DNA of 64,000 nt from the NCBI RefSeq assembly GCF_050920415.1, contig NZ_CP169309.1; one strand, written 5' to 3'. The notes beneath the pieces were generated by a model. It was not told the DNA's origin, searched no databases, and saw only the letters and a program-made list of their open reading frames with translations. The DNA comes from Escherichia coli. Its GTDB lineage: Bacteria; Pseudomonadota; Gammaproteobacteria; Enterobacterales; Enterobacteriaceae. Below, piece after piece: positions 6,097 to 34,622 of this stretch; the stretch's first letter is position 1, and each line of letters begins with the position of its first letter. Both the position numbers and the translations under genes were made by a program.

Positions 6097-6578
6097 TGAT
6101 GTTTTTACGTCAGGAAGACTTTGCCACGGTAGTGCGCTCCACTCCGCTTGTCTCTCTCGACTTTATTGTCGAGAACAGCCGCGGCGAGTTTCTGCTTGGC
6201 AAAAGAACCAACCGCCCGGCACAGGGTTACTGGTTTGTGCCGGGAGGGCGCGTGCAGAAGGACGAAACGCTGGAAGCCGCATTTGAGCGGTTGACGATGG
6301 CGGAACTGGGGCTGCGTCTGCCGATAACAGCAGGCCAGTTTTACGGTGTCTGGCAGCACTTTTATGACGATAACTTCTCCGGCACGGATTTCACCACGCA
6401 CTATGTGGTGCTCGGTTTTCGCTTCAGAGTAGCGGAAGAAGAACTGTTACTGCCGGATGAGCAGCATGACGATTACCGCTGGCTGACGCCGGACGCACTG
6501 CTCGCCAGTGACAATGTTCACCCTAACAGCCGCGCCTATTTTCTCGCTGAGAAGCGTGCCGGAGTACCCGGATTATGA
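6096..6578 (+). CDS. gmm: GDP-mannose mannosyl hydrolase (Nudix)
   Basis: 160-aa ORF with Nudix-like sequence; start overlaps the fcl stop; gene order. Confidence 0.9.
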
Positions 6579-7798
6579 AAATACTGGTCTACGGCATTAA
6601 CTACTCGCCGGAGTTAACCGGCATCGGCAAATACACCGGCGAGATGGTGGAATGGCTTGCGGCACAAGGTCATGAGGTGCGGGTCATTACCGCACCGCCT
6701 TACTACCCGCAGTGGCAGGTGGGCGAGAACTATTCCGCCTGGCGGTACAAACGAGAAGAGGGGGCCGCCACGGTGTGGCGCTGCCCGCTGTACGTGCCAA
6801 AACAGCCGAGCACCCTGAAACGCCTGTTGCATCTCGGCAGTTTTGCCGTCAGCAGTTTTTTCCCGTTGATGGCGCAACGTCGCTGGAAGCCGGATCGCAT
6901 TATCGGCGTAGTGCCAACGCTGTTTTGCACGCCGGGAATGCGCCTGCTGGCGAAACTCTCTGGTGCGCGTACCGTGCTGCATATTCAGGATTACGAAGTA
7001 GATGCCATGCTGGGGCTGGGGCTTGCCGGAAAAGGCAAAGGCGGCAAAGTGGCACAGCTGGCGACAGCCTTCGAACGTAGCGGACTGCATAACGTCGATA
7101 ACGTCTCCACGATTTCGCGTTCGATGATGAATAAAGCCATCGAAAAAGGCGTGGCGGCAGAAAACGTCATCTTCTTCCCCAACTGGTCGGAAATCGCCCG
7201 TTTTCAATATGTTGCAGACGCCGATGTTGATGCCCTTCGTAACCAGCTTGGCCTGCCGGATAACAAAAAAATCATTCTTTACTCCGGCAATATTGGTGAA
7301 AAGCAGGGGCTGGAAAACGTTATTGAAGCTGCCGAACGCCTGCGCGATGAACCGCTGATTTTTGCCATTGTCGGGCAGGGCGGCGGCAAAGCGCGGCTGG
7401 AAAAAATGGCGCAGCAGCGCGGACTGCGCAATATGCAATTTTTCCCGCTGCAATCTTATGACGCCTTGCCTGCACTGCTGAAGATGGGCGACTGCCATCT
7501 GGTGGTGCAAAAACGCGGCGCGGCAGATGCCGTATTGCCGTCGAAACTGACCAATATTCTGGCGGTAGGCGGTAACGCGGTAATTACCGCAGAAGCTCAC
7601 ACAGAACTGGGGCAGCTTTGCGAAACCTTCCCAGGAATTGCGGTTTGCGTAGAACCGGAATCGGTCGAGGCGCTGGTGGCGGGGATTCGTCAGGCGCTCC
7701 TGCTACCCAAACACAACACGGTGGCACGTGAATATGCCGAACGCACGCTCGATAAAGAGAACGTGTTACGTCAATTTATACATGATATTCGGGGATAA
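6575..7798 (+). CDS. wcaI: Colanic acid biosynthesis glycosyltransferase WcaI (GT4 family)
   Basis: 407-aa [27 protein letters not shown]...; gene order. Confidence 0.9.
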
Positions 7799-17613: not shown

Positions 17614-17787
17614 ATTTGCGACCATTCCTGGAAAAATGGAGCCATACTTAGGAACAATGCTACTGCAATCCACAACGAAGCGGCGTAACATCACAAGTAA
17701 TTCAGTAATCAATTCAGGGTAATTGATGCTGGCGAAAAAAATCGAACAAGCTATAATTCAGCAACCATTTTACAGGTGGATGAAATA

Positions 17788-18681
17788 ATGACGAATTTAA
17801 AAGCAGTTATTCCTGTAGCGGGTCTTGGGATGCATATGTTGCCTGCCACTAAGGCGATTCCCAAAGAGATGCTACCGATCGTCGACAAGCCAATGATTCA
17901 GTACATTGTTGACGAGATTGTGGCTGCAGGGATCAAAGAAATCCTCCTGGTAACTCACGCGTCCAAGAACGCGGTCGAAAACCACTTCGACACCTCGTAT
18001 GAATTAGAATCTCTCCTTGAGCAGCGCGTGAAGCGTCAACTGCTGGCGGAAGTTCAGTCCATCTGCCCGCCGGGCGTGACCATTATGAACGTGCGTCAGG
18101 GCGAACCTTTAGGTTTAGGCCACTCCATTTTATGTGCACGACCCGCCATTGGTGACAATCCATTTGTCGTGGTACTGCCAGACGTTGTGATCGACGACGC
18201 GAGTGCCGATCCGCTGCGTTACAACCTTGCTGCCATGATTGCGCGCTTCAATGAAACAGGCCGTAGCCAGGTGCTGGCAAAACGTATGCCGGGTGACCTC
18301 TCTGAATACTCGGTCATCCAGACCAAAGAACCGCTGGATCGCGAAGGTAAAGTCAGCCGCATTGTTGAATTCATCGAAAAACCGGATCAGCCGCAAACAC
18401 TGGACTCAGACATCATGGCCGTTGGTCGCTATGTGCTTTCTGCCGATATTTGGCCGGAACTTGAACGCACTCAGCCTGGTGCATGGGGACGTATTCAACT
18501 GACTGATGCCATCGCTGAACTGGCGAAAAAACAGTCCGTTGATGCCATGCTGATGACAGGTGACAGCTACGACTGCGGTAAAAAAATGGGTTATATGCAG
18601 GCATTTGTGAAGTATGGACTACGCAACCTCAAAGAAGGGGCGAAGTTCCGTAAAGGGATTGAGAAGCTGTTAAGCGAATAA
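17788..18681 (+). CDS. galF: UTP-glucose-1-phosphate uridylyltransferase-like regulatory subunit GalF
   Basis: ATG at 17788 ([39 protein letters not shown]...) gives 297 aa; nucleotidyltransferase fold; marks the 5' flank of the O-antigen locus. Confidence 0.93.
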
Positions 18682-18939
18682 TGAAAATCTGACCGGATGT
18701 AACGGTTGATAAGAAAATTATAACGGCAGTGAAGATTCGTGGCGAAAGTAATTTGTTGCGAATATTCCTGCCGTTGTTTTATATAAACAATCAGAATAAC
18801 AACGAGTTAGCAATAGGATTTTAGTCAAAGTTTTCCAGGATTTTCCTTGTTTCCAGAGCGGATTGGTAAGACAATTAGCGTTTGAATTTTTCGGGTTTAG
18901 CGCGAGTGGGTAACGCTCGTCACATCGTAGGCATGCATG

Positions 18940-18978
18940 CAGTACTCTGGTAGCTGTAAAGCCAGGGGCGGTAGCGTG
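18940..18978 (+). promoter_or_regulatory. JUMPstart element with ops site (GGCGGTAGCGTG) for RfaH-dependent antitermination of the O-antigen operon
   Basis: Exact ops consensus GGCGGTAGCGTG at 18967-18978 within cagtactctggtagctgtaaagccaggggcggtagcgtg, about 75 bp upstream of rmlB. Confidence 0.85.
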
Positions 18979-19052
18979 CATTAATACCTCTATTAATCAA
19001 ATCTGGAGCAGTCTATTTCACAGCATGCTCTCTGGCTATATGGAATAAAAAA

Positions 19053-20138
19053 GTGAAGATACTTGTTACTGGTGGCGCAGGATTTATTGGTTCTGCTGTT
19101 GTTCGTCACATAATAAATAATACGCAAGATAGTGTTGTTAATGTCGATAAATTAACCTACGCCGGAAATCTGGAATCGCTCGCTGAAATTTCTGATTCTG
19201 AACGTTATTCATTTGAGCATGCAGATATCTGTGATGCCGCAGCGATGGCTCGTATTTTTTCACAACACCAGCCAGATGCGGTAATGCACCTGGCGGCTGA
19301 GAGCCACGTTGACCGCTCAATAACTGGTCCGGCGGCATTCATTGAAACTAATATTGTAGGTACTTACGTACTTTTAGAAGCAGCGCGCAATTATTGGTCT
19401 GGTCTGGATGATGAAAAGAAAAAAAACTTTCGCTTTCATCATATTTCTACTGATGAAGTGTATGGTGACTTACCCCATCCGGATGAAGTAAATAGCAATG
19501 AAACATTGCCGTTATTTACGGAAACGACAGCATACGCGCCAAGTAGTCCATATTCTGCTTCTAAAGCGTCAAGCGATCATTTGGTTCGCGCATGGAAACG
19601 TACTTATGGTTTACCGACAATCGTGACTAATTGCTCGAACAACTATGGCCCTTATCATTTCCCGGAAAAGCTTATTCCACTGGTTATTCTTAATGCACTG
19701 GAAGGTAAGGCATTACCTATTTATGGCAAAGGAGATCAAATTCGCGACTGGTTGTATGTAGAGGATCATGCTCGTGCGCTATATACCGTAGTTACTGAAG
19801 GTAAAGCGGGTGAAACCTATAACATTGGCGGACACAACGAAAAGAAAAACATCGATGTTGTGCTGACTATTTGTGATTTGTTGGATGAGATAGTCCCGAA
19901 AGAGAAATCTTATCGTGAGCAAATTACTTATGTTGCTGATCGCCCAGGACACGATCGCCGTTATGCGATTGATGCTGAGAAGATTAGTCGCGAATTGGGT
20001 TGGAAACCACAGGAAACGTTTGAGAGCGGGATTCGGAAGACAGTAGAATGGTACCTGTCCAATACAAAATGGGTTGATAATGTGAAAAGTGGCGCCTATC
20101 AATCGTGGATTGAACAAAACTATGAGGGACGCCAGTAA
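19053..20138 (+). CDS. rmlB: dTDP-glucose 4,6-dehydratase
   Basis: 361-aa [23 protein letters not shown]...; SDR family with YxxxK; first gene after galF. Confidence 0.93.
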
Positions 20139-21037
20139 TGAATATCCTCCTATTCGGCAAAACAGGGCAGGTAGGTTGGGAACTACAGCGTGCTCTGGCA
20201 CCTCTGGGTAATTTGATTGCTCTTGATGTTCACTCCACTGATTATTGTGGTGATTTTAGTAATCCTGAAGGTGTAGCTGAAACCGTAAGAAGCATTCGGC
20301 CTGATATTATTGTCAACGCAGCCGCTCACACCGCAGTTGACAAAGCAGAATCAGAACCGGAGTTTGCACAATTACTTAACGCGACAAGTGTCGAAGCGAT
20401 TGCGAAAGCAGCCAATGAAGTCGGCTCCTGGGTTATTCACTACTCTACTGACTACGTATTTCCGGGAACCGGTGAAATACCATGGCAGGAGGCGGATGCA
20501 ACCGCACCGCTAAATGTTTACGGTGAAACCAAGTTAGCCGGAGAAAAAGCATTACAAGAGCATTGTGTGAAGCACCTTATTTTCCGGACCAGCTGGGTCT
20601 ATGCAGGTAAAGGAAATAACTTCGCCAAAACGATGTTACGTCTGGCAAAAGAGCGTGAAGAATTGGCCGTTATTAACGATCAGTTTGGTGCGCCAACAGG
20701 TGCTGAGCTGCTGGCTGATTGTACAGCACATGCCATTCGTGTCGCACTGAATAAACCAGAAGTCGCAGGCTTGTACCATTTGGTAGCCAGTGGTACCACA
20801 ACCTGGCACGATTATGCTGCGCTGGTTTTTGAAGAGGCGCGCAAAGCAGGCATTCCCCTCGCACTCAACAAACTCAATGCGGTACCAACAACAGCCTATC
20901 CTACACCAGCTCGTCGTCCACATAACTCTCGCCTTAATACAGAAAAATTTCAGCAGAACTTTGCGCTTGTCTTGCCTGACTGGCAGGTTGGCGTGAAACG
21001 CATGCTCAACGAATTATTTACGACTACAGCAATTTAA
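20138..21037 (+). CDS. rmlD: dTDP-4-dehydrorhamnose reductase
   Basis: 299-aa [23 protein letters not shown]...; start overlaps the rmlB stop. Confidence 0.92.
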   Translation: MNILLFGKTGQVGWELQRALAPLGNLIALDVHSTDYCGDFSNPEGVAETVRSIRPDIIVNAAAHTAVDKAESEPEFAQLLNATSVEAIAKAANEVGSWVIHYSTDYVFPGTGEIPWQEADATAPLNVYGETKLAGEKALQEHCVKHLIFRTSWVYAGKGNNFAKTMLRLAKEREELAVINDQFGAPTGAELLADCTAHAIRVALNKPEVAGLYHLVASGTTTWHDYAALVFEEARKAGIPLALNKLNAVPTTAYPTPARRPHNSRLNTEKFQQNFALVLPDWQVGVKRMLNELFTTTAI

Positions 21038-21094
21038 TAGTTTTTGCATCTTGTTCGTGATGGTGGAACAAGATGAATTAAAAGGAATGATGAA

Positions 21095-21970
21095 ATGAAA
21101 ACGCGTAAAGGTATTATTTTAGCAGGTGGTTCTGGTACTCGTCTTTATCCTGTGACTATGGCAGTCAGTAAACAGCTGTTACCTATTTATGATAAACCGA
21201 TGATCTATTACCCGCTCTCTACACTGATGTTGGCGGGTATTCGCGATATTCTAATTATAAGTACGCCACAGGATACTCCTCGTTTTCAACAACTGCTGGG
21301 TGACGGGAGTCAGTGGGGCCTTAATCTTCAGTACAAAGTGCAACCGAGCCCAGATGGTCTTGCGCAGGCATTTATCATCGGTAAAGAGTTTATCGGTAGT
21401 GATGATTGTGCTCTGGTTCTCGGTGATAATATCTTCTACGGTCACGATCTGCCGAAGTTAATGGATGCCGCTGTTAACAAAGAAAGTGGTGCAACGGTAT
21501 TTGCCTATCACGTTAATGATCCTGAACGCTATGGTGTCGTTGAGTTTGACAAAAACGGTACGGCAATTAGCCTGGAAGAAAAACCGCTACAGCCAAAAAG
21601 TAATTATGCGGTAACTGGGCTTTATTTCTATGATAACGACGTTGTAGAAATGGCAAAAAATCTTAAGCCATCTGCCCGAGGTGAACTGGAAATTACCGAT
21701 ATTAATCGTATCTATATGGAACAGGGGCGTTTGTCTGTCGCTATGATGGGGCGTGGTTATGCATGGCTGGATACAGGGACGCATCAAAGCCTTATTGAAG
21801 CAAGTAACTTCATTGCCACCATTGAAGAGCGTCAGGGATTAAAAGTATCTTGCCCGGAAGAGATTGCTTATCGTAAAGGGTTTATTGATGCTGAGCAGGT
21901 AAAAGTATTAGCCGAACCGCTTATCAAGAATCAATATGGTCAATATTTGCTGAAAATGATCAGCGAATAG
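21095..21970 (+). CDS. rmlA: Glucose-1-phosphate thymidylyltransferase
   Basis: 291-aa [24 protein letters not shown]... Confidence 0.93.
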
Positions 21971-21984
21971 TATGTGGGAACTCA

Positions 21985-22398
21985 ATGATGGATATTAAAT
22001 TAATCTCTTTGCAAAAACATGGGGATGAGCGTGGTGCATTAATTGCTCTTGAAGAGCAACGAAATATACCTTTCGAAGTCAAAAGAATATATTACATACT
22101 CGAGACTCTTAAGGGAGTAAGACGCGGATTTCATGCGCACAAGGTTACTCGTCAGTTAGCTATTGTAGTCAAGGGAGCTTGTAAATTTCATCTGGATAAT
22201 GGTAAAGAAACAAAGCAGGTGGAACTTAATGATCCAACAATTGCGTTGCTGATAGAACCCTATATATGGCATGAAATGTATGATTTTAGTGATGATTGTG
22301 TGCTGCTTGTAATTGCGGATGATTTCTATAAAGAGTCTGATTATATACGCAATTATGATGATTTTATTAGAAGAGTAAATTCAATTGAGAATTCATAA
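21985..22398 (+). CDS. fdtA: dTDP-4-keto-6-deoxyglucose 3,4-ketoisomerase (FdtA/QdtA-type cupin)
   Basis: 137-aa ORF; small cupin of the WxcM C-terminal/FdtA type (...RGFHAHK...WHEMYDFS...); sits between rmlA and an acetyltransferase/aminotransferase pair. Galacto- versus gluco-configured product cannot be told by eye. Confidence 0.7.
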
Positions 22399-22852
22399 GC
22401 TAAGTGACGTCCAGACAACATCAATTGGTGATGGAACAACTATCTGGCAGTTTGTTGTAATACTAAAAGGTGCTGTAATTGGTAATAATTGCAACATCTG
22501 TGCAAATACCTTGATTGAAAATAACGTTGTAATTGGTAACAATGTCACAGTCAAAAGCGGTGTGTATATTTGGGATGGCGTTAAAATAGAGGATAATGTT
22601 TTTATTGGTCCTTGTGTAGCATTTACAAATGATAAGTATCCTCGCTCTAAAGTCTATCCTGATGAATTTTTGCACACAATAATACGCAAAGGAGCATCAA
22701 TAGGTGCTAATGCAACCATCCTGCCAGGAATTGAAATTGGTGAAAAAGCAATCGTTGGTGCGGGGAGTGTCGTAACCAAAAATGTACCGCCATGCGCAAT
22801 AGTAGTAGGTAATCCAGCTCGATTTATTAAATGGGTAGAGGATAATGAATAA
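22385..22852 (+). CDS. fdtC: dTDP-3-amino-3,6-dideoxyhexose N-acetyltransferase (hexapeptide-repeat, FdtC-type)
   Basis: 155-aa ORF with left-handed beta-helix repeats ([23 protein letters not shown]...); probable TTG start at 22385 overlapping the fdtA 3' end, start uncertain. Confidence 0.7.
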
Positions 22853-23951
22853 AATTGATTTTTTAGATCTTTTTGCAATTAACCAGCGACAGCACAAAGA
22901 ATTAGTCTCTGCGTTTAGTAGGGTGCTAGATTCTGGTTGGTATATCATGGGCGAAGAACTTGAGCAGTTCGAGAAAGAGTTCGCAGAATACTGTGGAGTT
23001 AAGTATTGCATTGGTGTAGCAAATGGCCTTGATGCGTTGATACTAGTATTGAGGGCATGGAAAGAACTCGGCTATCTAGAAGACGGTGACGAGGTATTAG
23101 TACCGGCAAATACATATATTGCTTCTATTCTTGCTATAACAGAGAACAAACTTGTTCCTGTTCTTGTTGAACCAGATATAGAAACTTATAATATTAATCC
23201 TGCTTTAATTGAAAATTACATTACGGAAAAAACTAAAGCAATATTACCGGTTCACTTATATGGTCTATTGTGCAATATGCCAGAAATTAGTGCAATCGCA
23301 AGAAAATATAATCTGTTGATTCTTGAAGATTGTGCACAAGCACATGGTGCAATACGTGATGGTCGCAAAGCTGGAGCTTGGGGGGATGCTGCAGGATTTA
23401 GTTTTTATCCAGGAAAAAACCTTGGAGCTTTGGGGGATGCGGGAGCTGTTACTACAAATAATGCAGAATTATCCTCAACTATAAAAGCTTTGCGAAATTA
23501 TGGGTCACATAAGAAATATGAAAATATTTATCAGGGATTGAATAGTCGATTGGATGAACTGCAAGCAGCCTTATTGCGTGTAAAAATCCATACATTACCG
23601 GAAGATACTGCGATTCGGCAAAGGATTGCTGAAAAATATATTCGTGAAATAAAAAACCCTGCGATTACGTTACCAGTGTACGAAGGCCAAGGTGCGCACG
23701 TTTGGCATTTATTTGTAGTAAGAATCGCTAATCGTGAAAAATTCCAGTCATACTTATCAGAGAAGGGTATCCAAACCTTAATTCACTATCCATTACCACC
23801 CCATAAGCAGCAAGCATATCAAAATATGTCTAGTCTTAGCCTTCCAATTACTGAGCAAATTCATGATGAAGTCATTTCTTTACCTATAAGTCCGGTAATG
23901 AGTGAAGATGATGTCAATTATGTAATCAAAGTGGTCAATGATTACAAGTAA
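22845..23951 (+). CDS. fdtB: dTDP-3-keto-6-deoxyhexose 3-aminotransferase (DegT/DnrJ/EryC1 family, PLP-dependent)
   Basis: 368-aa ORF of DegT/ArnB aminotransferase type; context with fdtA/fdtC. Confidence 0.78.
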
Positions 23952-25213
23952 TGAAAAAATTTCTTCAGGTAACTATATTATCCGCTATCTATACATTCAT
24001 TAAAATGATTGCGGGTTTTATCATCGGTAAGGTAGTAGCAATTTATACAGGGCCATCAGGGGTAGCAATGCTTGGCCAAGTGCAAAGTTTAATCACAATA
24101 GTTGCAGGTACTACTTCTGCACCTGTAAGCACCGGTCTTGTTCGATATACTGCGGAAAATTGGCAAGAAGGACAGGAAGCATGCGCGCCATGGTGGCGCG
24201 CATGCTTAAGGGTTACTCTGTTTTTATTCTTGCTTATTATTCCCGTTGTTATTTTATTGTCGAAAAATATTAGCGAGTTACTTTTTAGCGATGGACAATA
24301 CACATGGTTAATCATTTTCGCATGTTGTATATTGCCATTCTCCATTTTAAATACATTGATCGCTTCAGTTTTAAATGGTCAACAATTCTATAAGCAATAT
24401 ATATTGGTTGGGATGTTTTCTGTATTCATTTCTACTATGTTTATGATTTTGTTGATTGTAGCTTATAATCTTAAAGGTGCATTGATTGCCACGGCTATAA
24501 ATAGTGCTATTGCTGGTCTTGTATTAGTTTTATTTTGTCTCAATAAATCTTGGTTTAGATTTAAATATTGGTGGGGTAAAACGGATAAAGACAAAATTAT
24601 AAAAATTATTCATTATACTCTGATGGCTTTGGTTTCTGTTATCTCCATGCCTACAGCATTGATGTGTATTAGAAAAATATTGATTGCTAAAACTGGTTGG
24701 GAGGATGCAGGGCAATGGCAGGCCGTATGGAAGATATCTGAGGTCTATCTTGGTGTTGTGACAATTGCTTTGTCAACATATTTCTTACCAAGATTGACAA
24801 TTATAAAAACAAGTTTCCTTATAAAAAAAGAGGTAAATAGTACTATATTATACATAGTATCTATTACTTCATTCATGGCGTTGAGTATCTATTTATTCCG
24901 CGATTTGGTAATAACAGTTTTATTTACTGAACAGTTTCGCTCAGCTCGTGAATTATTTTTGTTACAACTCGTAGGGGATGTAATAAAAATTGCTGGTTTT
25001 CTTTATGCATACCCTCTTCAAAGTCAGGGGCATACTAAACTATTCATCAGTTCAGAAGTGATTTTTTCTATGCTCTTTATCGTTACCACCTATATTTTTG
25101 TTGTAAATTATGGAGTACATGGTGCTAACATAAGTTATGTCATTACATATAGTTTATATTTTGTGTTTGCATTTGTGTTTACTAATTTTATTAATGTCAG
25201 AAGAATTAATTAA
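23951..25213 (+). CDS. wzx: O-antigen flippase Wzx
   Basis: 420-aa, about 12-TM, AT-rich membrane protein immediately after the sugar-nucleotide genes. Confidence 0.8.
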   Translation: MKKFLQVTILSAIYTFIKMIAGFIIGKVVAIYTGPSGVAMLGQVQSLITIVAGTTSAPVSTGLVRYTAENWQEGQEACAPWWRACLRVTLFLFLLIIPVVILLSKNISELLFSDGQYTWLIIFACCILPFSILNTLIASVLNGQQFYKQYILVGMFSVFISTMFMILLIVAYNLKGALIATAINSAIAGLVLVLFCLNKSWFRFKYWWGKTDKDKIIKIIHYTLMALVSVISMPTALMCIRKILIAKTGWEDAGQWQAVWKISEVYLGVVTIALSTYFLPRLTIIKTSFLIKKEVNSTILYIVSITSFMALSIYLFRDLVITVLFTEQFRSARELFLLQLVGDVIKIAGFLYAYPLQSQGHTKLFISSEVIFSMLFIVTTYIFVVNYGVHGANISYVITYSLYFVFAFVFTNFINVRRIN

Positions 25214-25222
25214 AAACAGAGG

Positions 25223-26278
25223 TTGAAATTGAAAATAATTATACCTGTCTTAGGATTTGGCAGGGCTGGTGGTGAAAGAGTTCTTTCTAAGCTGGCAACT
25301 GAATTGATGAATTATGGACATGATGTAAGTTTTGTTGTTCCAGATAATAGAACTAATCCATATTATGCTACCACAGCAAAAATCGTCACGAGTAAATCTA
25401 GTCAAAACCGTGTAAAAATATTGAGAATCATTAAAAATTACTATAATCTGTGGCGTAAATGCATAGAATTAAATCCTGATGCTGTAGTTGCTAGTTTTCA
25501 TTTGACTGCCTATCTTGTCGCATTATTACCAATCACCCGTCGTAAGAAATATTATTATATTCAGGCGTATGAAGTTAATTTTTTTGATAATATAATATGG
25601 AAATTAATAGCGGGTTTAACATATTATTTACCGCTTAAAAAAATACTAAATAGTCCTAATTTGCTTCCTCATAAACATGATGATTTTATAGGAGTAGTTC
25701 CTGCAGGAGTAGATTTAAACGTTTTCTATCCGAAACCATCAAATAGGTTATTAAATGGTCACACATCAATAGGGATTATTGGTAGAAAAGAGAAGCACAA
25801 AGGAACTAGCGAAATTATTTCAGTATTGTGTTCACTGGAAAATAAAGTTGGAATTATAATTAATATTGCGATCTATCTTGAAGAAGTTGATAAGGAGCGT
25901 TTAATTGCTGCCGGGTTTCAGGTTAATTTTTTTCCGATTACTTCTGATTTAGAATTGGCATCTTTTTATCGAAGCAATGACATCATGATTGCAGCTGGGT
26001 TAATTGAAGATGGCGCTTTCCATTATCCTTGTGCTGAATCAATGGCTTGTGGTTGTCTTGTTATTTCAAATTATGCGCCACTTACTGAAACTAACAGTGT
26101 ACTTAAATTAGTCAAGTTTGATGCTTGCAAACTTGGTAAAGCAATTAATCTTTGTCTCAATCTTGACCTAGAAGAAAAAAGCAAAGAAATCCAATCTAAT
26201 ATTTCTGTGTTGAATAAATATGACTGGAAAATTGTTGGTGAAACTTTCAATAGTTTATTGTTAGATGCAAATAAATAG
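25223..26278 (+). CDS. O-antigen glycosyltransferase (GT1/GT4-like)
   Basis: About 350-aa ORF with non-ATG start (TTG at 25223 or 25229; AGAGG RBS at 25217-25221 favours 25229); N-terminus KIIIPVLGFGRAGGERV... typical of GT4-like transferases. Confidence 0.7.
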   Translation: MKLKIIIPVLGFGRAGGERVLSKLATELMNYGHDVSFVVPDNRTNPYYATTAKIVTSKSSQNRVKILRIIKNYYNLWRKCIELNPDAVVASFHLTAYLVALLPITRRKKYYYIQAYEVNFFDNIIWKLIAGLTYYLPLKKILNSPNLLPHKHDDFIGVVPAGVDLNVFYPKPSNRLLNGHTSIGIIGRKEKHKGTSEIISVLCSLENKVGIIINIAIYLEEVDKERLIAAGFQVNFFPITSDLELASFYRSNDIMIAAGLIEDGAFHYPCAESMACGCLVISNYAPLTETNSVLKLVKFDACKLGKAINLCLNLDLEEKSKEIQSNISVLNKYDWKIVGETFNSLLLDANK

Positions 26279-26298
26279 TATACGTTGATGGGGAAAAT

Positions 26299-26856
26299 AT
26301 GAATATTGTTAAAACTGATATTCCAGATCTGATCGTTCTTGAACCAAAAGTGTTTAGTGATGAACGCGGCTTTTTTATGGAGAGTTATAATCAGATTGAA
26401 TTTGAGAAGACAATAGGAAGGCACGTAAATTTTGTTCAGGATAATCATTCAAAATCTAGTAAAGGCGTACTACGTGGGTTACATTATCAATTAGCACCGT
26501 ATGCACAGGCTAAATTAGTTCGATGTGTTGTAGGTCAGGTATTTGATGTTGCTGTTGATCTTAGAAAAAATTCACCAACGTTCAAAAAATGGTTTGGAAT
26601 AACCCTTTCCGCAGAAAATAAACGACAATTATGGATACCTGAAGGATTTGCTCATGGTTTCTTGGTGACCAGTGATGAAGCTGAGTTCATTTATAAAACA
26701 ACGAACTACTATGCTCCTGGTCATCAGCAAGCAATTATTTACAATGATCCTATTTTAAACATCGATTGGCCTTTCTGCAGTAGTGCTCTGTCATTATCGC
26801 AAAAAGATCAAGAAGCAAAATTATTTTCAGAATTATTGGACAGTGAACTGTTCTAA
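26299..26856 (+). CDS. rmlC: dTDP-4-dehydrorhamnose 3,5-epimerase
   Basis: 185-aa ORF MNIVKTDIPDLIVLEPKVFSDERGFFMESYN...; canonical RmlC cupin; separated from rmlBDA. Confidence 0.92.
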   Translation: MNIVKTDIPDLIVLEPKVFSDERGFFMESYNQIEFEKTIGRHVNFVQDNHSKSSKGVLRGLHYQLAPYAQAKLVRCVVGQVFDVAVDLRKNSPTFKKWFGITLSAENKRQLWIPEGFAHGFLVTSDEAEFIYKTTNYYAPGHQQAIIYNDPILNIDWPFCSSALSLSQKDQEAKLFSELLDSELF

Positions 26857-26923
26857 TAAAGTGTGCCACCTTATCCGTCTGAAGGATAGGTGGTTGCTTA
26901 TATTTTTTGAGTATGTTTGTATA

Positions 26924-27886
26924 ATGACAGAAAATAGTCCGAAATATAAACACGATAAAAGCTTAATAAGTTTTATCTACTTATTTTTTATATTTACACT
27001 TATTGTAGGCTTCATTATCGCAAATACCCAGTTTTTGGGGCGAAGTAGAGACTATGATAATTATATACAGATCTTTTCTGGTGAAGAAGGGGAGGGGGTT
27101 CTTGAATTATTTTATCGCGGATTGATGTTAATAACGACCAGCTATGAAATTATCATTTTTATAATTTTAACATGTTCTTTTTTTATAAAGGCAAGGTTTC
27201 TTGCTAACTATTCGCGTAATTTTTCAGGCTTGACCTTATTCTTTGTTTATTATGCAAGCGTTGCACTTTGGGTTTTAGATTATACTCAATTCAGAAATGG
27301 TCTATGTATTTCCATTTTAATGTTTTCCGTATACTATTTATTTATAAATAAACCGACTTATTTTTATTTCTCGCTATTATGTGCAATTGCAACTCATTGG
27401 TCTGCTTTGCCTTTTTTGCTTTTATATCCTTTTGTCTATTCAAAAAAAATAAGACACCTTGGTTATTTTTGTTTCAGTATTCTTGTTTTGATTGCGATCT
27501 CAGGAGAAGGAAAAGAGATCATTTCTTTTATAAGAAATTTTGGAGTGGGACAAAAAATAGGAAACGAAGCTGGTGTAAATTTAATAAATTCATTATCCCT
27601 TACCGCTATTTTCTGGTTTGTTATTAGTTACATATCAAGCATTGGAAATGAAAGGAGAAATTTAAGACTTTTCTTTTGTTATGGTGTCATGCAATACGTG
27701 ACTTTTAGCCTTTTCTCTCTACCTGTTATGGCTTTCCGTATTTTGGAAATGTATTTTTTCCTTATGTTAACCATTGGGGTGTTTATTAAGCAAAAAAAGA
27801 ATTATTATTTTGTTTTTTGCAAAGTGTTAATTTTATTGTATCTAACATACTATTATCATATGGTTTTTGGAGTGATTAATGTGTAA
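26924..27886 (+). CDS. wzy: O-antigen polymerase Wzy
   Basis: Listed ORF starts at 26783; ATG at 26924 (MTENSPKYKHDKSLISFIYLFF...) gives about 320 aa; very AT-rich, multi-TM, with a large predicted loop. Confidence 0.7.
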   Translation: MTENSPKYKHDKSLISFIYLFFIFTLIVGFIIANTQFLGRSRDYDNYIQIFSGEEGEGVLELFYRGLMLITTSYEIIIFIILTCSFFIKARFLANYSRNFSGLTLFFVYYASVALWVLDYTQFRNGLCISILMFSVYYLFINKPTYFYFSLLCAIATHWSALPFLLLYPFVYSKKIRHLGYFCFSILVLIAISGEGKEIISFIRNFGVGQKIGNEAGVNLINSLSLTAIFWFVISYISSIGNERRNLRLFFCYGVMQYVTFSLFSLPVMAFRILEMYFFLMLTIGVFIKQKKNYYFVFCKVLILLYLTYYYHMVFGVINV

Positions 27887-28766
27887 GGCTAAGGTGTTGG
27901 CTATAATTGTTACTTACAACCCGGAAATTATTCGTTTGACGGAATGTATTAACTCTTTAGCCCCACAAGTTGAGAGAATAATTCTTGTAGATAATGGCTC
28001 AAATAATAGTCATTTGATAAAAAATATCATTATTAATAACCTTGAAATTATTTTGCTTTCGGAAAACAAAGGCATTGCATTTGCTCAGAACCATTGTGTT
28101 AAGAAGGGTCTGGAAGCAAAAGAGTTTGACTATTTATTTTTCTCAGATCAGGATACTTGCTTTCCTAGCGATGTTATTGAAAAACTTAAGAGTACATTTA
28201 CGAAAAATAATAAAAAAGGTAAAAATGTTGCTTGTGCTTCTCCTTTTTTTAAAGACCATCGTTCAAATTATATGCATCCGTCAGTCAGCCTAAATATTTT
28301 TACGAGTACAAAAGTTATATGTAGTGAAGTAGACGATGATCTTTATCCCTCGCATGTTATTGCTTCTGGGATGTTAATGTCTCGCGAGGCATGGCGCGTC
28401 GTCGGACCATTTTGTGAAAAACTCTTTATAGACTGGGTTGATACAGAATGGTGTTGGCGTGCATTAGCTAATAGTATGATTATTGTTCAGACACCATCAG
28501 TCATCATTTCTCATGAACTTGGGTATGGGCAGAAAATTTTTGCTGGTCGATCTGTTACAATACATAATTCTTTCAGAAATTTTTATAAAATACGTAATGC
28601 AATATACTTAATGCTGCATTCAAATTATAGCTTCAAGTATCGTTATCATGCTTTTTTTCATGCGACAAAGAATATTGTATTTGAAATTTTATATTCGAAA
28701 GAAAAATTAAATTCACTGAAGGTTTGTTTTAAAGCTGTACGTGATGGTATGTTCAATAATTTTTAA
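27879..28766 (+). CDS. O-antigen glycosyltransferase, GT2 family (probable rhamnosyltransferase)
   Basis: 295-aa ORF; N-terminus LAIIVTYNPE...VDNGSNNS and a DxD-like region (FFSDQDT) typical of GT2. Confidence 0.72.
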   Translation: MCKAKVLAIIVTYNPEIIRLTECINSLAPQVERIILVDNGSNNSHLIKNIIINNLEIILLSENKGIAFAQNHCVKKGLEAKEFDYLFFSDQDTCFPSDVIEKLKSTFTKNNKKGKNVACASPFFKDHRSNYMHPSVSLNIFTSTKVICSEVDDDLYPSHVIASGMLMSREAWRVVGPFCEKLFIDWVDTEWCWRALANSMIIVQTPSVIISHELGYGQKIFAGRSVTIHNSFRNFYKIRNAIYLMLHSNYSFKYRYHAFFHATKNIVFEILYSKEKLNSLKVCFKAVRDGMFNNF

Positions 28767-28796
28767 TACAAAAATAGTTAGGCTCAAGGTGTTTAA

Positions 28797-29873
28797 ATGG
28801 AAGAAAATAATATGAAGACGGTCGCTGTAGTTGGCACAGTGGGTGTTCCTGCTTGTTATGGTGGGTTTGAATCACTTGTTCAGAATCTAATTGATTATCA
28901 ATCTGATGGTATACAATATCAGATATTTTGCTCTTCAAAAAAATATAATAAAAAATTAAAAAATTATAAAAATGCAGAATTAATCTATTTGCCGATAAAT
29001 GCCAATGGCGTCTCTAGCATAATTTATGACATTATGTGTTTAATTATTTGTTTATTCAAAAGGCCAGATGTTGTTTTAATATTGGGGGTATCTGGTTGTT
29101 TATTTCTACCAATTTATAAACTATTTTCAAAATCAAAGATCATTGTCAACATCGATGGGCTTGAATGGCGTAGAAATAAATGGGGAACGTTTGCTAAGAA
29201 ATTTCTCAAAATATCTGAGGCGATATCTATTAGAATAGCTGATATTATCATTTCAGATAATCAAGCAATAGCTGATTATGTGGAAAATAAGTACAATAAA
29301 AAAAGCGTAGTTATAGCTTATGGGGGAGATCATGCTACTAATCTTAGTACACCGATAGACGATGATCAAAAAAAAGATGGTTATTATTTGGGGCTTTGTA
29401 GGATAGAGCCTGAGAATAATATAGAAATGATTTTGAATGCCTTCATTAATACAGATAAAAAAATTAAATTTATGGGTAATTGGGATAATAGCGAGTATGG
29501 GCGCCAGCTAAAAAAATATTATTCAAACTATCCAAATATCACACTACTAGAACCTAACTATAATATCGAAGAACTTTATAAACTAAGAAAAAATTGCCTT
29601 GCATACATTCATGGACACTCGGCTGGTGGAACAAACCCTTCTTTAGTTGAAGCGATGCATTTTAATATTCCTATTTTTGCTTTCGATTGTGACTTTAATC
29701 GTTACACAACTAATAATTTAGCTCATTACTTTAATGATTCTGAACAACTGACCTCATTAGCAGACAGTTTGTCTTTTGGAAATCTTAAATGTCAAGTATT
29801 AGATTTAAAAAAATATGCTGAAGATATGTATAACTGGAGGCATATAGCTGCTATGTATGAATCTATTTATTAA
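28797..29873 (+). CDS. O-antigen glycosyltransferase (GT1-like)
   Basis: 358-aa ORF (alternative start MKTVAVVG at 28812); GT1-like C-terminal motifs; last gene of the O-unit block. Confidence 0.68.
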   Translation: MEENNMKTVAVVGTVGVPACYGGFESLVQNLIDYQSDGIQYQIFCSSKKYNKKLKNYKNAELIYLPINANGVSSIIYDIMCLIICLFKRPDVVLILGVSGCLFLPIYKLFSKSKIIVNIDGLEWRRNKWGTFAKKFLKISEAISIRIADIIISDNQAIADYVENKYNKKSVVIAYGGDHATNLSTPIDDDQKKDGYYLGLCRIEPENNIEMILNAFINTDKKIKFMGNWDNSEYGRQLKKYYSNYPNITLLEPNYNIEELYKLRKNCLAYIHGHSAGGTNPSLVEAMHFNIPIFAFDCDFNRYTTNNLAHYFNDSEQLTSLADSLSFGNLKCQVLDLKKYAEDMYNWRHIAAMYESIY

Positions 29874-30039
29874 ACGCATTAACAATAATATAATTGACCT
29901 TATATAGCTATCAGAGTAAAAATGTAACGCTGATTTTTTTGTTAAATGATGCGCATTATATATTTAATGATTAAAATACTCTTGATCAAATAAAACTATT
30001 TAATTAATAATGTAAAATTTCATTATGCTATTTAAGATG

Positions 30040-30108
30040 TGAAAAATAACTTAAATAAATGATGGGATATATTTATATTATCCCGGTTATAGACAAGCCC
30101 AGGGAAAG
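30040..30108 (+). repeat. Degenerate duplicate of the 5' end of the H-repeat (ISAs1) transposase gene
   Basis: 30057-30108 (aaatgatgggatatatttatattatcccggttatagacaagcccagggaaag) is about 85% identical to 30257-30308 inside the transposase ORF; the ATG equivalent is mutated. Confidence 0.6.
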
Positions 30109-30244
30109 ATCATCAGAAGTACACTTTTTGTACTAAATAATTCGCATTTTATGTTTAAAAATATGAGATATTCCTCATTACCTGAAGCTGTTTTTTATTG
30201 CTTATACATGATCAAATACTCCTTACATAATTAAGGAGAACAAA

Positions 30245-31381
30245 ATGGAACTTAAAAAATTGATGGAACATATTTCTATTATCCCCGATTACAGACAAGC
30301 CTGGAAAGTGGAACATAAATTATCGGATATTCTACTGTTGACTATTTGTGCCGTCATTTCTGGTGCAGAAGGCTGGGAAGATATAGAGGATTTTGGAGAA
30401 ACACATCTCGATTTTTTGAAGCAATATGGTGATTTTGAAAATGGTATTCCTGTTCACGATACCATTGCCAGAGTTGTATCCTGTATCAGTCCTGCAAAAT
30501 TTCACGAGTGCTTTATTAACTGGATGCGAGATTGCCATACTTCAGATGATAAAGACGTCATCGCAATTGATGGAAAAACACTCCGGCATTCTTATGACAA
30601 GAGTCGCCGTAAGGGAGCGATTCATGTCATTAGTGCGTTCTCAACAATGCACAGTCTGGTCATCGGACAGATCAAGACGGATGAGAAATCCAATGAGATT
30701 ACAGCCATCCCTGAACTTCTTAACATGTTGGATATTAAAGGGAAAATTATCACAACTGATGCGATGGGTTGCCAGAAAGATATTGCAGAGAAGATACAAA
30801 AACAGGGAGGTGATTATTTATTCGCTGTAAAAGGAAATCAGCGTCGGCTTAATAAAGCCTTTGAAGAAAAATTCCCACTGAAAGAATTAAATAATCCAGA
30901 GCATGACAGTTATGCAATTAGTGAAAAGAGTCACGGCAGAGAAGATATCCGTCTTCATATTGTTTGCGATGACCCTGATGAACTTATTGATTTCACGTTT
31001 GAATGGAAAGGACTGAAAAAATTATGCGTGGCAGTCTCCTTTCGCTCAATAATAGCAGAGCAAAAGAAAGAGCCCGAAATGATGGTCAGATATTATATCA
31101 GTTCTGCTGATTTAACCGCTGAGAAGTTTGCGACAGCGATTTGAAATCACTGGCACGTGGAGAATAAGCTGCACTGGCGTCTGGACGTGGTAATGAATGA
31201 AGACGATTGTAAAATAAGAAGAGGAAATGCAGCAGAATTATTTTCTGGGATACGGCACATTGCTATTAATATTTTGACGAATGATAAGGTATTCAAGACA
31301 GGATTAAGACGTAAGATGCGAAAAGCAGCCATGGACAGAAACTATCTCGCGTCAGTCCTTGCGGGGAGCGGGCTTTACTAG
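30245..31381 (+). mobile_element. ISAs1-family (H-repeat-associated) transposase gene interrupted by a single in-frame TGA (pseudogene)
   Basis: 299-aa ORF (30245-31144) and 74-aa ORF (31157-31381) are in the same frame, separated only by TGA at 31142-31144; the combined about 378-aa product has the ISAs1 motif ...[21 protein letters not shown]... with the stop at a conserved Arg position. Confidence 0.8.
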
Positions 31382-31453
31382 TCCTTCCTCGCTCAGTGAC
31401 AGAATATTGAATGAATAGCATTAAAATTATTAAATAATATGGTTTAATTCGAC

Positions 31454-33081
31454 ATGAACTTTAAGAATATAATTAGAATAATACTACCTTTTTTTATTTT
31501 CTTGAGTATTTTACTTTACTCAGGAAGGGCGGATAGTGTTTTGTTATTTACTATCGAATACACACTTGCAAGTATGGCAATCTTTCTGATAAAAAGAAAG
31601 TTTATAAGCAATATCTTGTGGGGGATTTATCTCTCAATTTTAGGTGTACAGGCAGCATCGCTATTTAGTTCAGGACAATATTTGATGCCTCTTGCCTTGT
31701 CGAATGCTGCAGAAGTTGAATCGCTAGGCATTGGCGAGGTAATCAAGGTTTTTTCTATTTTTATTTTATTTGTTATAGTTTCATTCGTTACGATGCCTTC
31801 TGGTGCTCTAGTCGGCCGTATTAAATATTATAAATTTAATTTTTTCTGTATAGTATTATTGCTTGTGTGTTCTTTCATAAGCACGGGACCGGTATATGCT
31901 TTTTATGAAACAGCAAAATTGTACTATTTACAGCAAACCTTTAAGCCTAGTGAGAAGATCGGTGATGCCGGGAAATCTTTTTTAAAAACAAGTGTTTTTA
32001 TTAACCCTCTACAGAATAACAACAACTTCAAAGGGCGTAATGTTATTGTAATCTTTGCTGAGGGATTTTCATCGGAGATTATTGGTAATTCAAAAATGGC
32101 GCATTTTCCAATTACGCCTAATTTAGATAAGTTATCTACTGAAGCACTAAGTTTTAAAAATTATTATAACCATACAGCAGTAACCTTTCGAGGTTTAAGA
32201 GGCCAGTTAACTTCTGGCTATCAATTTCGTGATGGGTTAACTGATGCTGGTACTGGTATTGCACAATTATCTAACGTAGAAATTAATAATATTTATCTTC
32301 ATCGTCAAACATCTTTGCCGAATATATTGAAAGAGTATGGCTATAAAAGTTATTTTATAGCGTCTACAGAAAAAATAGCCCACTCAACACTATGTTGAAA
32401 ACGCTTAATTTTGATAAAGTTCTTGGTATGGGAGATTTTATTGGTTATCAACGCGACAGAATGACTGATAAGCAAACATTTAATGCACTGCAATATTTTT
32501 TACGTTCTCAAGAAAATAAAAACGAACGCTTTTTTATTGGTGTGTACCCATCTGGTACTCATCATGGTCAAGATAGTCCAAATGAAAAATATTTTGATGG
32601 TAGCAATCCTCTCTACAATAAATTCTATAACTATGATTTTCAGTTGGGGAAGTTTGTTGATTTTTTTCGGCGCAGTTCATTTTATGGCAATACGTTGTTG
32701 ATAATTACATCGGATCATTCTACATTTCCTTCGACAGAATATAAGAAATCATTTAACAGCGATTCTCGTTATTTTGTGGACAAAATACCATTTCTGATCA
32801 TTGGGAAAAATATTACGCCTGAAGTTTTAGATGCAGGAGGTGAAAATTCTTTAAGTTTCGCGCCAACAATATTGCACATGTTAGGGATTCAGTATTCAAT
32901 GAATTATTTTTTGGGGTGTTCTCTTTTTGATAAGACGTGCACATCACCATTCTCACATCTTTCTGCTATTGGTAGTGATTATTTCAATACAGGCAAAGAA
33001 AATCATGTTGAACTAATTCAAAATAATAGTGGTAATGAATTAATAAAATTAGCCGAACGTTTTTATAACATTAGTGGCTAA
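31454..33081 (+). pseudogene. Sulfatase/alkaline-phosphatase-superfamily membrane enzyme (LtaS/phosphoglycerol- or phosphoethanolamine-transferase-like), frameshifted
   Basis: 314-aa ORF (31454-32398) has N-terminal TM helices then a sulfatase-like domain (NVIVIFAEGFSSE...); the domain continues in another frame as a 229-aa ORF (32392-33081; ...LLIITSDHSTFPS...); frame change lies near an A6 run at 32370-32375. Confidence 0.6.
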
Positions 33082-33215
33082 ATATAAAAATGTACAAGTT
33101 ACAAGCAATTTCCTAATTAGGAAATATATGACTGTAAAAGAAGATATAAATTAAGCTATTCTTTATCTTCAATAAGCCGCAACCCCGCGGTGATCACCCC
33201 TGACAGGAGTAAACA

Positions 33216-34622
33216 ATGTCAAAGCAACAGATTGGCGTAGTCGGTATGGCAGTGATGGGGCGCAACCTTGCGCTCAACATCGAAAGCCGTGGTTATACCG
33301 TCTCTATTTTCAACCGTTCCCGTGAGAAGACGGAAGAAGTGATTGCCGAAAATCCAGGCAAAAAACTGGTTCCTTACTATACGGTGAAAGAGTTTGTTGA
33401 ATCTCTGGAAACGCCTCGTCGCATCCTGTTAATGGTGAAAGCAGGTGCAGGCACGGATGCTGCTATTGATTCCCTCAAGCCATACCTCGATAAAGGTGAC
33501 ATCATCATTGATGGTGGTAATACCTTCTTCCAGGACACCATTCGTCGTAACCGTGAGCTTTCTGCCGAAGGCTTTAACTTTATCGGTACCGGTGTCTCCG
33601 GTGGTGAAGAAGGTGCGCTGAAAGGTCCTTCCATTATGCCTGGTGGCCAGAAAGAAGCCTATGAACTGGTTGCACCGATCCTGACCAAAATCGCCGCCGT
33701 TGCTGAAGACGGCGAGCCATGCGTTACCTATATTGGTGCCGATGGTGCTGGCCACTATGTGAAGATGGTTCATAACGGTATTGAATACGGCGATATGCAG
33801 CTGATTGCTGAAGCCTATTCACTGCTTAAAGGTGGCCTGAGCCTCACCAACGAAGAACTGGCTCAGACCTTTACCGAGTGGAATAACGGTGAACTAAGCA
33901 GCTACCTGATCGACATCACCAAAGATATCTTCACCAAAAAAGATGAAGACGGTAACTACCTGGTTGATGTGATTTTGGATGAAGCAGCAAACAAAGGTAC
34001 AGGCAAATGGACCAGCCAGAGTGCGCTAGATCTCGGCGAACCGCTGTCGCTGATTACCGAGTCTGTGTTTGCACGTTATATCTCTTCTCTGAAAGATCAG
34101 CGTGTTGCCGCATCTAAAGTTCTCTCTGGCCCGCAAGGACAGCCAGCAGGCGACAAGGCTGAGTTCATCGAAAAAGTTCGCCGTGCGCTGTATCTTGGCA
34201 AAATCGTTTCTTACGCTCAGGGCTTCTCTCAGCTGCGTGCTGCGTCTGAAGAGTACAACTGGGATCTGAACTACGGCGAAATCGCGAAGATTTTCCGTGC
34301 TGGCTGCATCATTCGTGCGCAGTTCCTGCAGAAAATCACCGATGCTTATGCCGAAAATCCGCAGATCGCTAACCTGTTGCTGGCTCCTTACTTCAAGCAA
34401 ATTGCCGATGACTACCAGCAGGCGCTGCGTGATGTCGTTGCTTATGCAGTACAAAATGGTATCCCGGTTCCGACCTTCGCTGCTGCGGTTGCCTATTATG
34501 ATAGCTACCGTGCCGCTGTTTTGCCTGCGAACCTGATCCAGGCACAGCGTGACTATTTCGGTGCGCATACTTATAAGCGCATTGATAAAGAAGGTGTGTT
34601 CCATACCGAATGGCTGGATTAA
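33216..34622 (+). CDS. gnd: 6-phosphogluconate dehydrogenase, decarboxylating
   Basis: 468-aa [33 protein letters not shown]...; canonical Gnd; 3' flank of the O-antigen locus. Confidence 0.97.

Follow-up and report, generated by a model that had tools for sequence, protein, structure and literature searches.

An old separation of rmlC from rmlBDA in the Escherichia coli O2/O50 O-antigen gene cluster, found also in Enterobacter and Citrobacter

The window analyzed here (the whole stretch of 64,000 nucleotides from E. coli contig NZ_CP169309.1) harbours the O2/O50 O-antigen gene cluster already known from E. coli, which is Wzx/Wzy-dependent and in which rmlC lies apart from rmlB, rmlD and rmlA. 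This split is real but old, occurs in Enterobacter and Citrobacter as well, and has been described before; it is hence ordinary. With a high degree of confidence, we propose that the split is ancestral to this type of cluster, that rmlC forms part of its central block, and that rmlBDA has been homogenised by recombination.

Results

Gene content of the locus

The region between 16 and 36 kb of the window corresponds to a standard enterobacterial polysaccharide locus, with colanic-acid genes (wcaM) and galF (17776-18681) followed by a low-GC gene cluster and then by gnd (33216-34622) and ugd. Profile searches of the ORFs of the window gave the order galF-rmlB-rmlD-rmlA-fdtA-fdtC-fdtB-wzx-GT4-rmlC-wzy-GT2-GT-(ISAs1)-wekS-gnd, with all the ORFs of the cluster on the + strand. 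An ops element (GGCGGTAGCGTG; 18967-18978, + strand) was detected by pattern match in the JUMPstart region of the galF-rmlB intergenic leader. Such an element in the JUMPstart is the signal for RfaH-dependent antitermination and is expected upstream of an O-antigen operon. A promoter scan of the sequence was uninformative, as it produced 63 matches compared to 59.7 expected in shuffles.

The first three genes of the cluster are rmlB (rfbB, dTDP-glucose 4,6-dehydratase; 19053-20138; NF007490, 795 bits), which is species-typical with a mosaic sequence, rmlD (rfbD, dTDP-4-dehydrorhamnose reductase; 20138-21037; NF007440, 655.6 bits), also species-typical, and rmlA (rfbA, glucose-1-phosphate thymidylyltransferase; 21095-21970; NF012024, 670.8 bits), and all three scores exceed the respective equivalog cut-offs. 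They are followed by fdtA (21988-22398), with a match to PF05523 FdtA (E=1.7e-46) and annotated by PGAP as a sugar 3,4-ketoisomerase, by the hexapeptide-repeat N-acetyltransferase gene fdtC (22385-22852; PF00132/PF14602), and by fdtB, encoding a DegT-family aminotransferase (22845-23951; PF01041, E=4.4e-108). PGAP splits fdtC into two pseudogene pieces despite its uninterrupted ORF of 155 aa. Orthologues of 154-157 aa with 80-90% aa identity are found in Enterobacter, Citrobacter and L020 (a metagenome contig), and a dN/dS of about 0.05-0.07 indicates purifying selection on this gene.

Downstream of fdtB lies wzx (23951-25213), which PGAP labels as an O2/O50 family O-antigen flippase in an identical record and which shows a WzxE-like match. 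Between wzx and rmlC, directly 5' of the latter, there is a gene (25229-26278) annotated by PGAP as a family 4 glycosyltransferase, with weak matches to PF13439/PF00534; our guess is that it may be the published wekP. A stem-loop followed by a T-rich stretch occupies the rmlC-wzy spacer (26866-26893, + strand; MFE -19.5 kcal/mol, z=-3.1). Then come wzy (26924-27886; PF14897), an EpsG-family O-antigen polymerase of the O2/O50 family according to PGAP, a GT2-family gene with PF00535 and a match to the rhamnosyltransferase subfamily that falls below the family cut-off (27879-28766; TIGR01556, E=8.1e-53), and a DUF1972/GT1 glycosyltransferase gene resembling Cps2T beta-1,4-rhamnosyltransferases, likewise below the cut-off (28797-29873; NF046071, E=1.8e-59; PF09314), which is the last gene of the co-inherited central block.

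At the 3' end of the cluster, an ISAs1-family transposase pseudogene (30245-31381; NF033564; PGAP, internal stop) marks the edge of the O2-specific block, and is absent in the Enterobacter and Citrobacter versions. It is followed by a wekS-like gene of the sulfatase/LTA-synthase family (31454-33081; PF00884), which is split into ORFs 31454-32398 and 32428-33081 by a deletion of 1 nt near 32,366, as seen by comparison with the unbroken gene of ExPEC XM. The gene is intact (539-543 aa) in Enterobacter and in other O2 strains, between which it is only 87-89% identical.

The assignment to O2/O50 follows from the location of the cluster between galF and gnd, from its O2/O50 wzx and wzy, and from its agreement with the published gene content. 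Positions 18700-33200 of the window (14.5 kb) show 100% identity with the E. coli N96 chromosome, in whose record wzx and wzy are annotated as "O2/O50 family". At least 80% of the cluster segment is present in 131 of 5,426 complete E. coli genomes. Both the O2 and the O50 clusters have been published and are >99% identical to each other, with strain G1674 (GU299792) as O2 reference and strain U18-41 (KY115227) for O50; the genes named in G1674 include rmlBDAC, fdtA/B/C and wekS, the last gene of the cluster (PMC5293828).

The rmlC gene and its product

The preliminary description had reported that the canonical rmlBDAC block is split, with rmlC about 4.3 kb downstream of the other rml genes, and this is correct: 4,328 nt separate the rmlA stop codon from the start of rmlC (rfbC, dTDP-4-dehydrorhamnose 3,5-epimerase; 26299-26856), with wzx and one glycosyltransferase gene in between. 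Comparison with the contiguous rmlBDAC clusters (L002, L003, L004, L012, L013 and L014) bore out as well that the fdt module occupies the usual rmlC slot. The encoded protein is full length, matching TIGR01221 with 262.9 bits (equivalog cut-off 155.75) over residues 2-178 of 185, PF00908 with E=1.9e-75, and the RmlC of S. enterica (PDB 1DZR) with E=3.7e-76. Residues His63, Lys73, Tyr133 and Asp170 (S. enterica numbering), which we take to be the catalytic residues, are identical at all four aligned positions, and a dN/dS of 0.07-0.14 indicates purifying selection. Scores and residues fit an active enzyme, and rmlC is predicted to be an intact, selectively maintained epimerase gene.

Genes at least 95% identical to this rmlC were found in only ~130 E. 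coli genomes, and genes of 60-80% identity in ~2,340. Outside E. coli, the nearest proteins are those of Enterobacter mori, E. cloacae and Enterobacter sp. (83-86% aa), followed by proteins with about 66-72% identity in Escherichia, Citrobacter, Lelliottia, Xenorhabdus and others. As the closest relatives all belong to the Enterobacterales, an exotic donor for rmlC was discarded.

Predicted sugar pathways

We assume that the fifth sugar of the O2 unit is D-Fuc3NAc, a 3-acetamido-3,6-dideoxyhexose. Following established pathways, RmlA and RmlB would make dTDP-4-keto-6-deoxy-D-glucose, which RmlC and RmlD would convert to dTDP-L-rhamnose and which FdtA, FdtB and FdtC would also take to dTDP-D-Fuc3NAc. 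The roles of the enzymes of both dTDP-sugar branches are listed in PMC7685785. The predicted ketoisomerase, PLP aminotransferase and N-acetyltransferase (PF05523, PF01041 and PF00132) are encoded together 3' of rmlA/rmlB, and the assignment of the product as Fuc3N (galacto) instead of Qui3N (gluco) rests on the published O2 structure, since FdtA and QdtA are not told apart by Pfam. The composition published for the O2 unit is three L-Rha, GlcNAc and a fifth sugar, written as N-acetyl-D-galactosamine (PMC5293828).

A recombination breakpoint inside rmlA

Sliding-window and base-level alignments showed that the sequence changes from E. coli-typical to O2-type at about 21,920-21,930, inside rmlA and ~45 nt before its stop codon, the only breakpoint found. 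Over the 100 nt from 21,926 onward, identity with E. coli clusters drops to 50-55% and that to Enterobacter rises to 89%; at base level, differences from E. coli rmlA start near 21,920, and the mismatch profiles between O2 strains give the same boundary. On the 3' side, the near identity to E. mori continues over the rmlA stop codon and the short spacer that leads to fdtA, which makes the adjacency of rmlA and fdtA a part of the O2-type block. The final ~45 nt of rmlA are thus inherited with fdtA, and the breakpoint is a boundary of homologous recombination within a gene that both sequence types have, not an insertion scar; it marks where species-typical rmlBDA sequence recombined in. A junction had previously been suspected around 21970-21985; a real breakpoint does exist close by, but the true recombination boundary is now placed inside rmlA.

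The second suspected junction, at 26,279-26,298, did not hold up, as this stretch is colinear with Enterobacter except for a 5-nt indel, and the flanking coding sequence is well conserved. Searches around the 4.3-kb block (21,971-26,298) found no direct or inverted repeats bracketing it. All the repeats reported are short matches in two copies, as is typical of AT-rich DNA. An 8-nt sequence (AATAGTAT) follows the stop codon of rmlA as well as that of GT4, and was considered as a possible duplication scar; not being conserved at the orthologous junctions of Enterobacter, it was treated as a chance match.

Composition and divergence of rmlC compared to rmlBDA

GC3 values were 0.35 for rmlB, 0.40 for rmlD and 0.37 for rmlA, compared to 0.27, 0.26 and 0.27 for fdtA, fdtC and fdtB, 0.25 for rmlC, and 0.22-0.29 for wzx, the glycosyltransferase genes and wzy. 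We looked for a change in composition from the fdt module to rmlC and found none, as GC3 (0.26-0.27 vs 0.25) and dS are similar on both sides. In five E. coli clusters with contiguous rmlBDAC, GC3 was 0.26-0.34 for rmlC and 0.35-0.41 for rmlBDA.

Sequence affinities were compared across 13 full loci, covering a handful of serogroups and genera. In pairwise matrices, rmlB, rmlD and rmlA group by species, with 86-98% identity among E. coli serogroups and 73-83% to Enterobacter. At the nucleotide level, rmlB is 86-93% identical to that of other E. coli serogroups and 73-74% to that of Enterobacter O2-like clusters, and rmlD 89-97% within E. coli and 73-75% to Enterobacter. The rmlBDA genes of the window match thousands of E. 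coli genomes at about 88-93%. By contrast, rmlC groups by O type, with 63-82% identity among E. coli serogroups even when it is contiguous with rmlA. Relative to other E. coli serogroups, the rmlBDA genes of the window are 87-97% identical and its rmlC only 64-72%, and this rmlC is 82-83% identical (nt) to that of Enterobacter O2-like clusters.

The divergence of rmlC runs in parallel with that of the central genes through three tiers of relatives. In other E. coli O2 strains the central genes are 95-100% identical (aa) and RmlC 98-99%; in Enterobacter the corresponding values are 72-90% and 83-86%, and in Citrobacter and L020 they are 50-83% and 70-71%. RmlB, RmlD and RmlA show 79-95% aa identity in both cross-genus tiers. 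When E. coli O2 is compared with Enterobacter, nucleotide identity is 75-86% for the central genes and 73-75% for rmlB and rmlD. Synonymous divergence between both genera is 0.7-1.8 for the central genes and 0.75-1.17 for rmlC, comparable to that of galF (1.2) and gnd (0.8-0.9), and is saturated for rmlB and rmlD; these cross-genus dS values are near saturation, and are affected by the difference in GC3 (0.35 vs 0.5 for rmlB). Neither composition nor divergence sets rmlC apart from the fdt module and the remaining central genes.

The O2 strains themselves show the same partition. From fdtA to the last glycosyltransferase gene, rmlC included, the window is 96-99% identical to APEC O2-211 and ExPEC XM, with galF and gnd at 90-97%. 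Between O2 strains, identity is 88-94% for rmlB, 87-95% for rmlD and 87-95% for rmlB, rmlD and rmlA together, a divergence as high as that between serogroups. Since the O2 strains share the central block but not rmlBDA, the 5' genes have evidently been swapped by homologous recombination together with the flank.

These results confirm that rmlC and rmlBDA differ in composition and phylogenetic affinity. The possibility, raised previously, that two parts of the locus have different origins is supported in so far as GC3 is 0.25 in rmlC and 0.35-0.40 in rmlBDA and their affinities differ, but contiguous clusters behave alike: the discordance is not specific to the split, as it is seen in every E. 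coli rml set examined. On the other hand, the idea that the fdt module is an insert of separate origin was not supported, as rmlC and the fdt genes share both GC3 (within the 0.22-0.29 range of the block) and the three-tier divergence. As rmlC matches the central genes, the part with a different history is rmlB, rmlD and most of rmlA, and not the fdt module.

The same gene order in other genera

The order galF-rmlB-rmlD-rmlA-fdtA-fdtC-fdtB-wzx-GT4-rmlC-wzy-GT2-GT-sulfatase-gnd was found in the clusters of Enterobacter mori, E. cloacae and Enterobacter sp. (L006-L011), and the same architecture is present in L017, L019 and L020, which correspond to Citrobacter freundii (RmlC 71%) and to metagenome contigs (70% and 84%). 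In a neighbour-joining tree of 27 RmlC sequences, built on a protein of 185 aa, all eight split-type proteins form a single clade with 96% bootstrap, and the contiguous-type ones (6/6) fall outside it. The monophyly of the split-type RmlCs implies that the split arose once, before these lineages separated. The order rmlA-fdtACB-wzx-GT4-rmlC-wzy-GT2-GT is ancestral in a family that includes Escherichia, Enterobacter, Citrobacter and metagenome contigs. The central block is more divergent from that of Citrobacter than the housekeeping flanks are, so that an old polymorphism inherited vertically and old lateral transfers are not separable. Nothing specific on a link between E. coli O2 and the O-antigen clusters of Enterobacter or Citrobacter was found in the literature searched.

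Discussion

The explanation that we regard as highly probable is that rmlC belongs to the serotype-specific, low-GC central block and diverges with it. The sequence of rmlB, rmlD and rmlA, except for the final ~45 nt of the latter, is species-typical. The 5' rml sequence and the galF flank have been exchanged repeatedly among rml-containing E. coli clusters by homologous recombination, and the contrast between rmlC and rmlBDA reflects this homogenisation of the 5' genes instead of a recent arrival of the fdt genes.

How the ancestral order was assembled is a separate question. The preliminary description had suggested that the 3-amino-sugar module was inserted by recombination into an ancestral rml operon, and this is only partly supported: the split order is ancestral across genera, so any insertion was ancient and is indistinguishable from a relocation or gain of rmlC. 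One plausible scenario, though not quite a probable one, is that a distant ancestor with a contiguous rmlBDAC cluster received fdtA-fdtC-fdtB-wzx, perhaps with GT4, by insertion in the space from rmlA to rmlC, an event compatible with our preferred explanation. The recurrence of an fdtA-(fdtC)-fdtB-wzx cassette in the same order in L002-L005, with Fdt proteins 54-69% identical to those of the window, suggests movement as a unit; the Wzx proteins of these clusters are 42-48% identical to that of the window in L002-L004 and only 28% in the O5 cluster (L005). However, in L002-L004 the cassette sits after rmlC and not before it, and a homologue of GT4 was not detectable in them; moreover, no trace of a junction survives, and neither composition nor divergence separates the cassette from rmlC.

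A rather unlikely alternative is that a rhamnose-less ancestor of the O5 type, with rmlB-rmlA-fdtACB-wzx, gained rmlC together with wzy and two rhamnosyltransferase-like genes in its central region, and rmlD through rml recombination; in a variant of this scenario, rmlC moved downstream from an rmlBDAC-fdtACB-wzx arrangement. In its favor, the O5 cluster has the order rmlB-rmlA-fdtA-fdtC-fdtB-wzx, devoid of rmlC and rmlD, and it fits that the O2 rmlC adjoins genes with matches to rhamnosyltransferase families (TIGR01556, Cps2T-like) and that the 3' end of rmlA is co-inherited with fdtA. Against it, the RmlA of O5 is of a different type (63% aa), which makes it a poor partner for recombination, the rhamnosyltransferase assignments lie below the family cut-offs, and the event left no direct trace. 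As insertion, movement and addition of rmlC all lead to the same final order and no trace of them remains, the route is not distinguishable.

It is also conceivable, though improbable, that the O2-type cluster with its split is a trans-genus form of great age whose architecture may be kept for regulation through the hairpin in the rmlC-wzy spacer. Flagged as terminator-like, this hairpin is conserved in Enterobacter with one compensatory change of a C-G to a U-A pair; in Citrobacter a different sequence forms a hairpin at this position, and L020 lacks one. The role of the hairpin could be that of an internal attenuator or of an element for RNA processing or stability. If so, it would separate a nucleotide-sugar and flippase half, ending with rmlC, from a wzy and glycosyltransferase half, with low dosage of wzy. 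Neither the hairpin nor the distribution of this cluster type across genera was found in the literature searched.

Co-transcription with RfaH antitermination would be the expected mode of expression, judging from the single strand and from the ops element (GGCGGTAGnnTG) at 18967-18978 in the leader 5' of rmlB, in a cluster where both wzx and wzy are present; with all genes on one strand behind this leader, the position of rmlC should not affect the pathway.

Finally, that the fdt module, wzx and GT4 were inserted into an E. coli rmlBDAC in this very lineage, leaving rmlC as a residual 3' end that shares the origin of rmlBDA, is hardly credible, for although the gene order itself, the end of similarity to other E. 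coli rmlBDA near the rmlA stop codon, and the AATAGTAT sequence after the rmlA and GT4 stops could be read in its favor, rmlC matches the fdt, wzx and glycosyltransferase genes and not rmlBDA in GC3 and in every tier of divergence, at least three genera have this gene order, positions 26,279-26,298 are colinear between genera with the 8-mer not conserved and no flanking repeats, and the breakpoint lies inside rmlA, whose 3' end is carried with fdtA.

Under our preferred explanation of an ancestral split with homogenised rmlBDA, discordance in composition or phylogeny between rmlC and rmlBDA should not be taken as a sign of recent insertion. The presence of the O2-type architecture in Enterobacter and Citrobacter also bears on the specificity of molecular serotyping based on wzx/wzy or rmlC across the Enterobacteriaceae. 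Beyond such bookkeeping the case is of little importance, as the cluster, its gene order and the split are found in the literature, and the rml genes follow their textbook pattern of evolution. Indeed, the rmlBDAC grouping was described in 49 E. coli O-antigen clusters, and O2/O50 was listed among eight serogroups with rmlC apart from rmlBDA (DebRoy et al. 2016, PMC4732683), so the separation of rmlC, including its wording as an insertion, was already on record.

With respect to the O2/O50 reference (G1674), the window has the same genes in the same order from galF to gnd. This strain differs from other O2 strains in that its wekS-like gene is frameshifted and theirs is intact, in having one ISAs1 remnant compared to two in ExPEC XM and APEC O2-211, and in its rmlBDA alleles, which differ by 5-13% from theirs. 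Two E. coli clusters (L002 and L003) and a third one labelled E. coli but with Enterobacter-like flanks (L004) also carry both dTDP-sugar branches, with the same internal fdt-wzx order as O2, with Fdt proteins 54-65% identical and Wzx 42-48%. Unlike in O2, their rmlC is located directly after rmlA and before fdtA, and their RmlCs are only 59-62% identical to that of O2 and fall outside the split-type clade.

The same kind of rmlC split was reported for O54, O62, O71, O109, O119 and O177 (DebRoy et al. 2016, PMC4732683). In O62, an insertion element is located near the end of rmlA, at its third-last codon (PMC4732683), which represents a different and recent mechanism. In Salmonella, rmlB tracks the subspecies and rmlC the O antigen, with a gradient in GC, and recombination junctions fall within the rml genes (Reeves et al. 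2013, PMC3715488, citing previous work on 35 strains in 13 serogroups of S. enterica). The rml gradient described for Salmonella and E. coli (PMC3715488) is reproduced here, with rmlB following the species and rmlC, of lower GC, following the O type. The difference is that rmlC is here embedded in the central block, so that the junction is found at the 3' end of rmlA and not within a contiguous rmlA-rmlC stretch.

Mosaic rmlB and the probable 3' edge of the block

The rmlB gene (19053-20138) is visibly mosaic. Between about 19,150 and 19,700, its identity to three E. coli loci with a contiguous rmlBDAC (L002, L003 and L014) is 76–87%, compared to 91–99% to the O16 locus; the O25 locus shows 90–98% identity within this segment from about 19,330 onwards. 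This pattern suggests that rmlB has undergone more than one crossover in the past.

At the opposite end of the cluster (29874-33081), an ISAs1 transposase pseudogene (30245-31381) seems, from sequence comparison, to mark the 3' limit of the co-inherited block, because the terminal wekS-like gene preceding gnd is less conserved: its identity between O2 strains is only 87–89%, versus 96–99% for the central block (fdtA to the last glycosyltransferase gene), and its amino acid identity between E. coli and Enterobacter is only 49–64%. The window carries one ISAs1 copy, ExPEC XM and APEC O2-211 carry two remnants, and Enterobacter and Citrobacter carry none. The wekS-like gene (31454-33081), of the sulfatase/LTA-synthase family, is frameshifted in the window, where a 1-nt deletion near 32366 splits it into ORFs of 314 and 217 aa; it is unbroken (539–543 aa) in APEC O2-211, ExPEC XM and Enterobacter. 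A split wekS-like gene was also seen in one E. mori contig.

Inverted repeats within the central block

The spacer between rmlC and wzy (26857-26923), the sole sizeable intergenic gap within the central block, contains a stem-loop (26866-26893; -19.5 kcal/mol, z=-3.1) and, downstream of it, a T-rich stretch. Enterobacter keeps this hairpin with one compensatory change (C-G to U-A); at the equivalent position, Citrobacter carries a hairpin of 11 bp whose sequence is unrelated. The rmlC-wzy spacer of one metagenome contig with the split gene order (L020) has no hairpin. The element may act as an attenuator or in RNA stability. A perfect GC-rich palindrome (AAGCATGCGCGCCA TGG TGGCGCGCATGCTT; 24177-24207), whose 14-nt arms enclose a 3-nt loop, lies in frame inside wzx, surrounded by AT-rich coding sequence, and is largely retained in Enterobacter wzx.

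Annotation of fdtC and fdtB and species assignment of a compared genome

In every O2 genome seen, PGAP calls fdtC (22385-22852 in the window) as two "incomplete" pseudogene fragments. The ORF is unbroken, encoding 155 aa from a TTG start, and keeps 80–90% amino acid identity in other genera, with a dN/dS of about 0.05–0.07; the pseudogene call is probably an annotation artefact. In ExPEC XM, fdtB is annotated as frameshifted (locus coordinates 6047-7152); if this frameshift is real, that strain could not make dTDP-Fuc3NAc.

The seawater genome MB06173 (NZ_CM129884.1), labelled "E. coli" and carrying contiguous rmlBDAC plus an fdt locus, is probably not E. coli, as suggested by the comparisons: its flanking genes share only 74% (wcaM), 81% (galF) and 86% (gnd) identity with the window, and its rmlB and rmlD cluster with those of Enterobacter (87–93%).
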